Source: Escherichia phage CBA6
Reading direction: 5' to 3' (one strand)
DNA length: 9,022 nucleotides
Sequence record: KM389297.1
Position numbers and translations under genes: made by a program. Shown one piece after another: positions 3,616 to 4,622 of the stretch; position 1 is the stretch's first letter; the number at the start of each line of letters is the position of its first letter. Under the pieces are notes generated by a model. That model was not told where the DNA came from. It ran no database searches and saw only the letters and a list, made by a program, of their open reading frames with translations.

Positions 3616-3641
3616 AAAGCCCCTTCGGGGGCTTTTTAGTT
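3616..3641. terminator. Bidirectional rho-independent terminator between convergent genes
   Basis: AAAGCCCC-TTCG-GGGGCTTT: 5-bp GC stem, extendable by A-T pairs, with UUCG tetraloop (3619-3632), followed by TTTTTAGTTTTT on the + strand. Lies 8 nt after the gene 32 stop; the stop codon of the minus-strand gene (3636-3638) sits in the T-run. Confidence 0.8.
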
Positions 3642-4580
3642 TTTAACGACGTCCTGCAACAATCCGAGTAAACTACTCTTCTCGGACGCCGTCAGGTTAT
3701 CATTGCCTAATATATCCCTCTGGATGCCGATAGAGATCCTTTCGAAATCAGCCAAGCTGATACCAGCCAGATTGTTTACAAGCTGATCGAGTTGCTTATA
3801 AGCCAGCAGGGCTTCACCTGTGAAGTTTCCTTCTTTGATCTTTTTATACAGCTGTCCGGCTTTTGACGCAGCGGTTTCCCAGTCTCCGGAAGCAAGAGCA
3901 TCAGTAATACCCAAAGGAAGAAAATCGCTGGCGAGGCTGCGCGTTTCATATTCAGTCTCCGATAATACTTTGTTATAAGAAAAGGAAATGTTGTACTGAT
4001 TAAATTGATCGGCGGCGCTTTTATCCAGGACTATAGAACTGAAGTTGATGGGGTGAGCCTCAGTCACATAAACGCGATGAACAACCTGATCTTCTGTATC
4101 CATTTGTTCTATACAAATATCGGTCACGAAATCTTCATAATAACCCATCTTGGTTGTGTATGGGTCGAATATCAGATTCTTCCATTTGTCCATGACCGAC
4201 TTTTCATAATAATCGTTGGCGAGGAGGAACGACAACTCCAGATCAATGTTCGTCTTGTTGTTCGGCATTTTAATGTGGTTGCCGTTGTTGGTCATGGGAG
4301 TAGTGTCAATCCCAGTACCAGGCAAAGAAGCAACCATACACATCATTTGTAAGGAACGAGACGTCTGGTTTGTCCCTCCAAAGAAAGCGTTTACAATACG
4401 GGCGCTTTGTTTGAACAGATCCCCAAATGATGAAGATGAAGGATATGCGTTGCCGTCATTGGATAGAGTCGCATTAGAATCGAAAATACCAGGCGGCAAC
4501 GGGATTGTGACACGAAATCTGTTCTTGCGGGAAATCCCCCGCTGAAGCAGTTGCGTTAGAAAATTGCGATAGTCTTCCAC
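3636..4580 (-). CDS. Tail tube/baseplate protein of the gp19/gp48/gp54 family; best guess gp54-like baseplate tail-tube initiator
   Basis: Track ORF 3636-4775 (-). Proposed start is the in-frame GTG at 4580-4578 with GGAG 8 nt upstream, downstream of a TATAAATA late motif. N-terminus VEDYRNFLTQLLQRGISRKNRF and internal IKMPNNKTN...DKWKNLIFDP...ISFSYNKV resemble T4 gp54 as recalled from memory. About 315 aa. Confidence 0.5.
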   Translation of the reverse strand: MEDYRNFLTQLLQRGISRKNRFRVTIPLPPGIFDSNATLSNDGNAYPSSSSFGDLFKQSARIVNAFFGGTNQTSRSLQMMCMVASLPGTGIDTTPMTNNGNHIKMPNNKTNIDLELSFLLANDYYEKSVMDKWKNLIFDPYTTKMGYYEDFVTDICIEQMDTEDQVVHRVYVTEAHPINFSSIVLDKSAADQFNQYNISFSYNKVLSETEYETRSLASDFLPLGITDALASGDWETAASKAGQLYKKIKEGNFTGEALLAYKQLDQLVNNLAGISLADFERISIGIQRDILGNDNLTASEKSSLLGLLQDVVKN

Positions 4581-4614
4581 GATGAGGACTCCATTTAAAT
4601 AATATATCTGCTGA

Positions 4615-4622
4615 TATTTATA
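4615..4622 (-). promoter_or_regulatory. T4-type late promoter motif TATAAATA (minus strand)
   Basis: Plus strand reads TATTTATA at 4615-4622, the exact reverse complement of the late consensus. It sits about 35 nt upstream of the proposed GTG start of the gp54-like gene. Confidence 0.6.

Follow-up and report, generated by a model that had tools for sequence, protein, structure and literature searches.

A gp54-type tube-initiator gene of Escherichia phage CBA6, with a predicted T4-type late promoter that faces a putative late promoter of gene 2

Sequence comparison identifies the gene at positions 3636–4580 of a 9022-nt stretch of Escherichia phage CBA6 DNA (the whole stretch that was analyzed, referred to below as the window) as the Kuttervirus orthologue of T4 gp54, and as an ordinary gene for its phage family. 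It is highly probable, in our judgment, that the product is a gp54 orthologue translated from the GTG at 4580, that the gene is transcribed late from the motif TATAAATA, and that a second late promoter in the same spacer serves the divergent gp2 gene. The identity of the gene, its start codon, and the conservation of both motifs come directly from the comparisons described here, and the presence of orthologues in virions from published papers; from these we infer that the promoters are active, where transcription starts, that it is late, and any interplay of the two promoters. The gp54-like gene itself is already known: it is annotated, occurs family-wide, and the products of its orthologues have been confirmed in virions. 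A modestly new element would be a conserved face-to-face pair of late promoters, with TAAATA cores on opposite strands.

The CBA6 window is ViI-like (Kuttervirus) DNA. In a megablast search against phage genomes, it was 98.9% identical at the nucleotide level, over its full length, to Escherichia phage ECML-4 and Salmonella phage Vi01, which are both Kuttervirus phages, and 169 phage records, nearly all of them from Ackermannviridae, covered at least 80% of it. The gene order was obtained by mapping the Vi01 annotation onto the window, and was supplemented by family scans (Table 1). An Rfam search of the window found no RNA family.

Table 1. Genes and predicted signals in the 9022-nt CBA6 window
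Feature	Position	Strand	Basis and remarks
Two hypothetical genes	first in window order	+	Vi01 mapping, family scans
RuvC-like resolvase	859–1470	+	Vi01 mapping, family scans
Small membrane protein, then FmdB-type zinc-ribbon protein	between RuvC-like resolvase and gp33	+	
gp33 late-transcription co-activator	1984–2226	+	annotated at the matching Vi01 position
Hypothetical gene	between gp33 and gene 32	+	
Gene 32 single-stranded-DNA-binding protein	2571–3608	+	Pfam PF08804, E 6e-66; PHROG 224; convergent with the gp54-like gene
GC-rich hairpin AAAGCCCC-TTCG-GGGGCTTT	3616–3635	both	terminator scan; between the gene 32 stop (3606–3608) and the gp54-like stop
gp54-like gene, 314 aa, baseplate/tail-tube junction (‘tube initiator’)	3636–4580	−	GTG 4580, TAA 3638–3636
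Intergenic spacer, 54 nt	4581–4634	both	both predicted promoters and both ribosome-binding sites
Shine-Dalgarno GGAG	4589–4592	−	read directly; GGAG or a similar purine-rich element at the equivalent position in relatives
TTTAAATA, predicted late promoter of gp2	4594–4601	+	TAAATA core 4596–4601; start predicted at ~4607
TATAAATA, predicted T4-type late promoter (−13 to −6)	4622–4615	−	exact match; inferred start ~4609, leader ~29 nt
gp2 DNA end protector	4635–5339	+	PHROG 429, E 1e-69; annotated in Vi01 and CBA120; divergent from the gp54-like gene
Three hypothetical genes, 5-hmdU DNA kinase, start of a thymidylate-synthase-like gene	after gp2	+	

The fold of T4 gp54 resembles that of tail-tube proteins. 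Six copies make up a ring that lies on the baseplate hub, above that of gp48, and gp54 initiates polymerization of the gp19 tail tube. Orthologues of the CBA6 protein are annotated as Vi01_066, CBA120 orf081, phiSboM-AG3 gene 073, LIMEstone1 ORF50, and Sajous1 gp25. Profile PHROG 3629 (‘tail tube protein’) spans the whole protein (residues 1–314 against profile positions 1–313, E 9e-180), and PHROG 45 (‘tail tube’) also matches it (E 3e-22). When solved structures were searched with the single sequence, T4 gp54 was returned as a marginal match only (E 0.015). With a profile query, an alignment of eight homologues from eight genera, only gp54-type chains were matched: 9ufn_C (5e-7), 5iv5_W of T4 (8.5e-5), and 9f4a_BQ of KP1 (2.6e-4). 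The similarity to T4 gp54 is confined to a core of about 100–135 residues. Comparison with the T4 paralogues by hhalign gave a probability of 88.6% for gp54, 1.8% for gp48, and 0.65% for gp19. The first-pass annotation had likened the product to gp54, gp48, and gp19 together, and had proposed a formal family search; the search did find similarity, with T4 gp54 the closest relative, and of the three likenesses the one to gp54 stood, while those to gp48 and gp19 did not.

A Pfam scan of the window protein at E ≤ 0.01 gave no match. When the family was scanned at E ≤ 10, PF06841 (Phage_T4_gp19) stayed sub-threshold, at 14.0 bits versus a cut-off of 28.2, and PF23849.1 (Phage_TTP_2) matched two of the eight family members scanned (best E 1.3e-5), with the window protein not among them. 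All 27 database homologues carry a precomputed PF23849.3 label, so the newer version of PF23849 probably covers the gp54-like family. An AlphaFold2 model calculated from 20 homologues was of low confidence, with a mean pLDDT of 54.6; Foldseek with this model ranked T4 9mkb, KP1 9f4b/9f4a, and 5iv5 first, followed by tube and Hcp proteins, at TM-scores of 0.3–0.5. Because the model is poor by these measures, the fold evidence for a tail-tube/Hcp-like barrel is only supportive. Neither the searches of solved structures nor those of the literature revealed a baseplate structure from Ackermannviridae.

According to some database names, the protein would be gp19, the main subunit of the tail tube, or gp48, which caps it. 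Product names indeed differ widely in RefSeq/GenBank (‘tail tube protein’, ‘gp19 tail tube monomer’, ‘baseplate hub protein’), the weak PF06841 matches point in that direction, and the fold search retrieves tube and Hcp proteins as well. However, CBA120 has separate genes annotated as gp48 (orf043, a gp48-type tail tube cap located beside gp53, with a weak BLASTP match to T4 gp48, E 1e-4) and as gp19 (orf194, 177 aa, by annotation alone), and the gene studied here is therefore the gp54 counterpart. In addition, virion proteomics of AG3 assigns the abundant gp19 tube protein to another ORF (PMC3121705), and both the hhalign probabilities and the significant solved-structure matches, all of them to gp54-type chains, run against a gp19 or gp48 identity, which we consider very improbable. 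We suggest that the product be named a gp54-type tube initiator, and not ‘tail tube protein’, ‘gp19’, or ‘baseplate hub’. As to its presence in virions, LIMEstone1 ORF50 was detected by 7 peptides, with 24.5% coverage (PMC3296691), and in Sajous1, which is 98.7% identical to the window, gp25 was detected by 24 spectra and gp2 by 3 spectra (PMC10892097).

The GTG at 4580–4578 shares the reading frame of the ORF ending at 3636, and is separated from GGAG by 8 nt. The annotations of Vi01, of CBA120, and of phages from six further genera use a start equivalent to 4580. The codon at this position is GTG in Kuttervirus, Agtrevirus, Limestonevirus, Taipeivirus, Miltonvirus, and Nezavisimistyvirus, and ATG in Vibrio K476, Aeromonas phiA8-29, and Delftia PhiW-14, and the N-termini of the homologues align from residue 1. 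Six of eight relatives (LIMEstone1, ChubbyThor, 3M, Vibrio K476, phiA8-29, and PhiW-14) have an in-frame stop 1–16 codons 5′ of the start; five of the six lack any alternative start, and in the sixth, Serratia phage 3M, the only one is a GTG located 3 codons before it.

In the window, no stop interrupts the frame for 77 codons 5′ of 4580, and the resulting 379-aa ORF reaches 4775 and overlaps the divergent gp2 gene (start 4635) by 141 nt (about 140 nt had been estimated beforehand). The true gene could in principle be this 379-aa ORF, translated from GTG 4775 or ATG 4736 and containing TATAAATA internally; besides the open frame, such a reading is favored by the 379-aa form having been deposited for a few phages, e.g., SeF3a (cluster representative P0001). 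Yet in six relatives the stops just 5′ of the homologous start interrupt such an extension, PHROG 3629 (313 positions) begins at residue 1 of the 314-aa form, the ATG of the Vibrio, Aeromonas, and Delftia phages occupies the same place as the enterobacterial GTG, and the extension is simply the antisense of conserved gp2 coding sequence. We give the longer form next to no credence. The start-position comparison, together with the upstream stops, indicates that the open frame 5′ of 4580 arises by chance from its position opposite the gp2 coding strand, and the stops in six of eight relatives mark the 379-aa ORF, on comparative evidence, as a spurious over-extension. GTG 4580 is thus supported as the real start, and the preference for it over the longest ORF in the first-pass annotation was well placed; the ATG that it had put at either 4775 or 4736 is indeed found at 4736, but the codon at 4775 reads GTG. 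The N-terminus predicted from GTG 4580 is (M)EDYRNFLTQLLQR. A literature search found no N-terminal peptide data for any Ackermannviridae phage, and the Sajous1 supplements contain no peptide sequences able to map the N-terminus. The comparative data settle the correct start, and it is a few database records that carry the spurious 379-aa form.

The octamer of T4 late promoters spans positions −13 to −6 (PMC2988020). The reverse complement of 4615–4622 was previously noted as an exact T4 late motif about 35 nt 5′ of an in-frame GTG with a well-spaced GGAG; on the minus strand these positions do read TATAAATA, and the motif-to-GTG distance is 34 nt. This is the single exact copy of TATAAATA in the window, both strands included. 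With an expectation of 0.26, and at least one copy in 47 of 200 shuffles, the count of exact copies alone is not significant. The placement is significant, with an estimated probability of ~6e-4 for a correct-strand match located 20–62 nt 5′ of this start. It is position and conservation, not count, that carry the promoter argument.

To assess conservation, the region between the gp2 and gp54 start codons was aligned for nine phages from different genera. Besides the start codons, the only invariant columns were TAA.TA in the gp54 direction and TATTTA, which is TAAATA on the gp2 strand. The flanks and the 10–14 nt between the cores vary, and the length of the spacer ranges from 45 to 54 nt across phages. 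In the gp54 direction, the core TAA(A/G)TA is invariant in all nine; LIMEstone1 carries TATAAGTA where TATAAATA stands in CBA6.

The 2011 CBA120 paper states that a ViI-like late-promoter sequence was not identified (PMC3184105). Using the CBA120 genome (157 kb) and its gene table, we surveyed the interval 20–62 nt upstream of starts. We found TAAATA in this interval at 14 of 35 structural genes (gp48, gp2, gp54, gp26, gp5, gp22, gp18, gp14, gp6, three tail spikes, and two others) versus 16 of 168 other genes, the endolysin gene among them (odds ratio 6.3, Fisher p 4e-5). A total of 30 of the 74 genomic TAAATA copies lie in such promoter-position intervals, and the exact TATAAATA is found at 4 of these 30 sites, 27–34 nt upstream of the start codons of gp54, gp26, and two hypothetical genes; a fifth exact copy in CBA120 lies inside a tail-spike gene. 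The commonest octamer upstream of CBA120 structural genes is ACTAAATA. Judged by this distribution, the TAAATA motif class behaves as a late promoter, of which the exact T4 octamer is a minority variant. The exact T4 octamer was also considered as the family's general late consensus, and was rejected, with only 5 copies in CBA120 and most structural genes preceded by ACTAAATA-like sequences.

These data bear on whether TATAAATA is no more than a chance match in AT-rich DNA, the gp54-like gene being expressed from a σ70-like promoter or by read-through. The low significance of one exact match in 9 kb agrees with a chance origin, as do the handful of exact copies in all of CBA120, one of them intragenic. 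On the other hand, TAA(A/G)TA is invariant in nine genera, including phages whose gp54-like proteins are just 18–32% identical to the one in the window, while the neighboring bases vary; TAAATA is strongly enriched upstream of CBA120 structural genes; the phage encodes homologues of gp55, gp33, and gp45; and no σ70-like site was found in the spacer, nor a −35 element. A chance match therefore appears improbable. Since the core is conserved across genera and TAAATA is enriched upstream of CBA120 structural genes, TATAAATA very probably is a late promoter.

By annotation and literature, CBA120 encodes gp55 (orf120) and gp45 (orf163). Most likely, the host RNA polymerase transcribes the gp54-like gene late in infection, bound to the phage sigma factor gp55 and acting with gp33 and the sliding clamp gp45. 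From TATAAATA, transcripts of the gp54-like gene would start near 4609, and translation from GTG 4580 would be served by GGAG. Transcript 5′ ends, RNA-seq, or late-promoter mapping were not found in the literature for any Ackermannviridae phage.

In the gp2/gp54 spacer, the predicted promoters and the ribosome-binding sites of both genes form an imperfect inverted repeat composed of CTCCTTATAAATA, 13 nt, and TATTTAAATGGAG, with arms that are, by inspection, complementary at 11 of 13 positions. The gp2-direction motif TTTAAATA abuts the Shine-Dalgarno sequence of the gp54-like gene on the opposite strand, and each promoter adjoins the ribosome-binding site of the other gene. The gp2-direction hexamer is annotated as a putative late promoter in the LIMEstone1 record, and a late promoter is listed upstream of gp2 in phiSboM-AG3 (PMC3121705). 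The starts predicted at ~4609 on the minus strand and ~4607 on the plus strand imply transcripts that would share about 3 nt, and since they fall within ~3 nt of each other, the two late promoters would face each other in one spacer. A similar face-to-face pair may be present between gp4 and gp48 in CBA120. No description of face-to-face T4-type late promoters was found in the literature searched. With the predicted starts so close, and each core abutting the other ribosome-binding site, the open complexes at the two promoters would be mutually exclusive. More speculatively, and with more doubt than confidence on our part, the pair may be ancient, and mutually exclusive open complexes may split expression between two low-copy virion proteins according to clamp-loading polarity.

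The gp54-like gene was correctly described in the first-pass annotation as convergent with gene 32, with a hairpin common to both; the stem sits between the two stops. Folded in the gene 32 direction, it has an energy of −14.5 kcal/mol, against −13.7 kcal/mol in the gp54 direction. A long T-run follows the stem only in the gene 32 direction (TTTTTAGTTTTT); in the gp54 direction the T-tract is weak, with TTTAGTG after the stem. The hairpin is a better intrinsic terminator for gene 32 than for the gp54-like gene. LIMEstone1 has a factor-independent terminator annotated at the homologous place.

The order of genes in the window differs from that of T4, as had been noted. In T4, gene 32 is located between segG/59 and frd.3–frd, in the order 33-59-segG-32-frd.3-frd.2-frd.1-frd, and gene 54 is the last gene of the hub operon 51-27-28-29-48-54. 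The arrangement gp33-x-gp32, with a convergent gp54 and a divergent gp2, is found in Kuttervirus, Agtrevirus, Limestonevirus, Miltonvirus, Nezavisimistyvirus, and Vibrio phages, and Taipeivirus has the same gp33-gp32-gp54-gp2 block with one extra small ORF. The divergent gp2/gp54 pair is kept in Aeromonas phiA8-29 and, outside the family, in Delftia PhiW-14, and the two genes are in tandem in Sinorhizobium phiM9 (gp2-gp54-gp26-gp51) and Aeromonas AS-zj (gp4-gp2-gp54-gp26). The order in the Kyanoviridae phage Melnitz is matching, but the gene in the gp2 position is unannotated. The adjacency of gp2 and gp54 in such distant phages indicates that the 2-54 linkage is old in the T4 superfamily, older than the family, and that it is T4 itself that departs from it. 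A recent mosaic insertion was considered as an origin of the arrangement and rejected because the arrangement is conserved across families. The earlier suggestion of a mosaic rearrangement was thus an overstatement, the gp33-gp32/gp54/gp2 order being standard in Ackermannviridae genera.

T4 gene 2 is a late gene. The description of the CBA6 gp54-like gene as a lone late gene also went too far: its divergent neighbor, gp2, is a virion protein with its own conserved TTTAAATA, a motif overlooked in that description, and in Vi01 the baseplate genes gp26, gp5, and gp25, which share the strand of the gp54-like gene, are only ~0.2–3.6 kb beyond the left end of the window. In AG3, baseplate genes are distributed among three separate regions (PMC3121705).

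Nothing in these results would surprise a specialist, and their practical value is small. The gp2/gp54 spacer does provide a clean, conserved example of the TAAATA late core in ViI-like phages, and the promoter pair might offer a small system in which to study how promoters compete during clamp-activated late transcription.

Of the known systems, T4 gp54 (PDB 5IV5 chain W, 9MKB) is comparable to the CBA6 protein in length (320 versus 314 aa); the N-termini align from residue 1, an R-x-N-x-F motif is common to both, and the core of about 100–135 residues matches T4 gp54 and gp54-type chains (9UFN_C, Klebsiella phage KP1 9F4A_BQ) by profile. The likeness extends to the status of minor virion protein (in orthologues), to a predicted late-type promoter, and perhaps to a tail-tube/Hcp-like fold, which a low-confidence model suggests. 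In contrast, sequence identity within the core is only ~20%, the C-terminal ~100 residues of the CBA6 protein are predicted to be helical and have no alignment to T4 gp54, and the CBA6 gene begins with GTG; whereas T4 gene 54 follows gene 48 in the hub operon, the CBA6 gene sits by itself, with gene 32 on one side and gene 2 on the other. The Ackermannviridae orthologues have the same start, neighbors, and spacer, with 88–99% protein identity in enterobacterial genera; nothing material separates them from the CBA6 gene, apart from TATAAGTA in LIMEstone1 and product names that are inconsistent across records. The (A/G)CTAAATA consensus of Aeromonas phage Aeh1 (PMC2988020) corresponds to the commonest CBA120 form, ACTAAATA, but the gp54-like gene has the exact T4 form, TATAAATA. 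The T4 26/51 spacer, ~50 nt between divergent baseplate genes with a TATAAATA on each strand, resembles the CBA6 spacer. However, the T4 octamers overlap as a palindrome, TATTTATAAATA, and fire back-to-back, while the CBA6 motifs are 13 nt apart and face each other, and each transcript would read through the promoter of the other.

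The order gp4-gp2-gp54-gp26(-gp51), with the genes arranged in tandem, is found in distant phages of the T4 superfamily that belong to Pootjesviridae (phiM9) and of the Straboviridae genus Ceceduovirus (AS-zj). A matching order is present in the Kyanoviridae phage Melnitz, where the gene occupying the gp2 position carries no annotation. Because the tandem order occurs in phages this distant, the linkage of genes 2 and 54 seems to be ancestral and the order in T4 itself derived. Product names for the gp54-type gene vary in the databases ("tail tube protein", "gp19 tail tube monomer", and "baseplate hub protein"). 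In a few deposited Kuttervirus records, e.g., Salmonella phage SeF3a, the gene is annotated in an over-extended version of 379 aa; this version (P0001) serves as the representative of its 90% cluster.

Features considered in this part; coordinates are those of the window unless CBA120 is named
Feature	Coordinates	Strand	Remarks
CTAAATA late-promoter-like motif with adjoining hairpin	826-871 (motif core 829-834)	+	5' of RuvC-like gene
Gene 32	2571-3608	+	
5-hmdU DNA kinase gene	7644-8294	+	Pfam PF18748, E 9e-107
Divergent gp4/gp48 spacer, 59 nt	CBA120 19999-20057		gp4 head closure (-) / gp48 (+)

A second face-to-face layout resembling that of the gp2/gp54 spacer may exist in the gp4/gp48 spacer of CBA120, to judge from its motifs: CCTAAATA is directed at gp48, while the opposite strand carries a TTTAATTA-like element directed at gp4. 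Related ACTAA(T/G)TA variants are located upstream of gp19, gp20, and gp23. Exact TATAAATA occurs only five times in the whole 157-kb CBA120 genome, the commonest putative late motif there being ACTAAATA, as is likewise the case in Aeromonas phage Aeh1. The late consensus of the ViI family has been published as unidentified, a question that sequence alone could settle.

The gene 32 protein of the window was compared by eye with the T4 gp32 sequence. At the place equivalent to the T4 Cys/His cluster it reads ...TFGNDDPVRDHDRPLW..., and it appears to be without the zinc-binding cluster; the acidic C-terminal tail is kept.

The product named "terminase small subunit" by RefSeq in Vi01 and CBA120 is, by its domain match, the 5-hmdU DNA kinase (PF18748). 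A separate terminase small subunit, orf200, is annotated in CBA120 and adjoins the large subunit. Compared with Vi01, the kinase gene of the window has a 12-nt in-frame deletion. It also contains a nonsense codon (CGA to TGA at 7716-7718), so that the ORF can restart only at TTG 7725; the explanation could be that the N-terminus is truly truncated, that the codon is read through, or that the sequence contains an error.

Directly after the CTAAATA motif comes a T-run-bearing hairpin of 13 bp (-15.7 kcal/mol), which ends just 5' of ATG 871 and contains ATG 859. The RuvC-like gene is annotated from ATG 871 in CBA120 but from ATG 859 in Vi01, and the motif-hairpin design suggests that ATG 871 is the true start. 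In a transcript begun ~6 nt past the motif, the hairpin would be left without its 5' arm (-2.8 kcal/mol). The same succession of motif, hairpin, and ribosome-binding site precedes the tail spike genes and several other genes of CBA120. T4 genes e, soc, and 49 are translatable from late transcripts only, and the design upstream of the RuvC-like gene is reminiscent of them.
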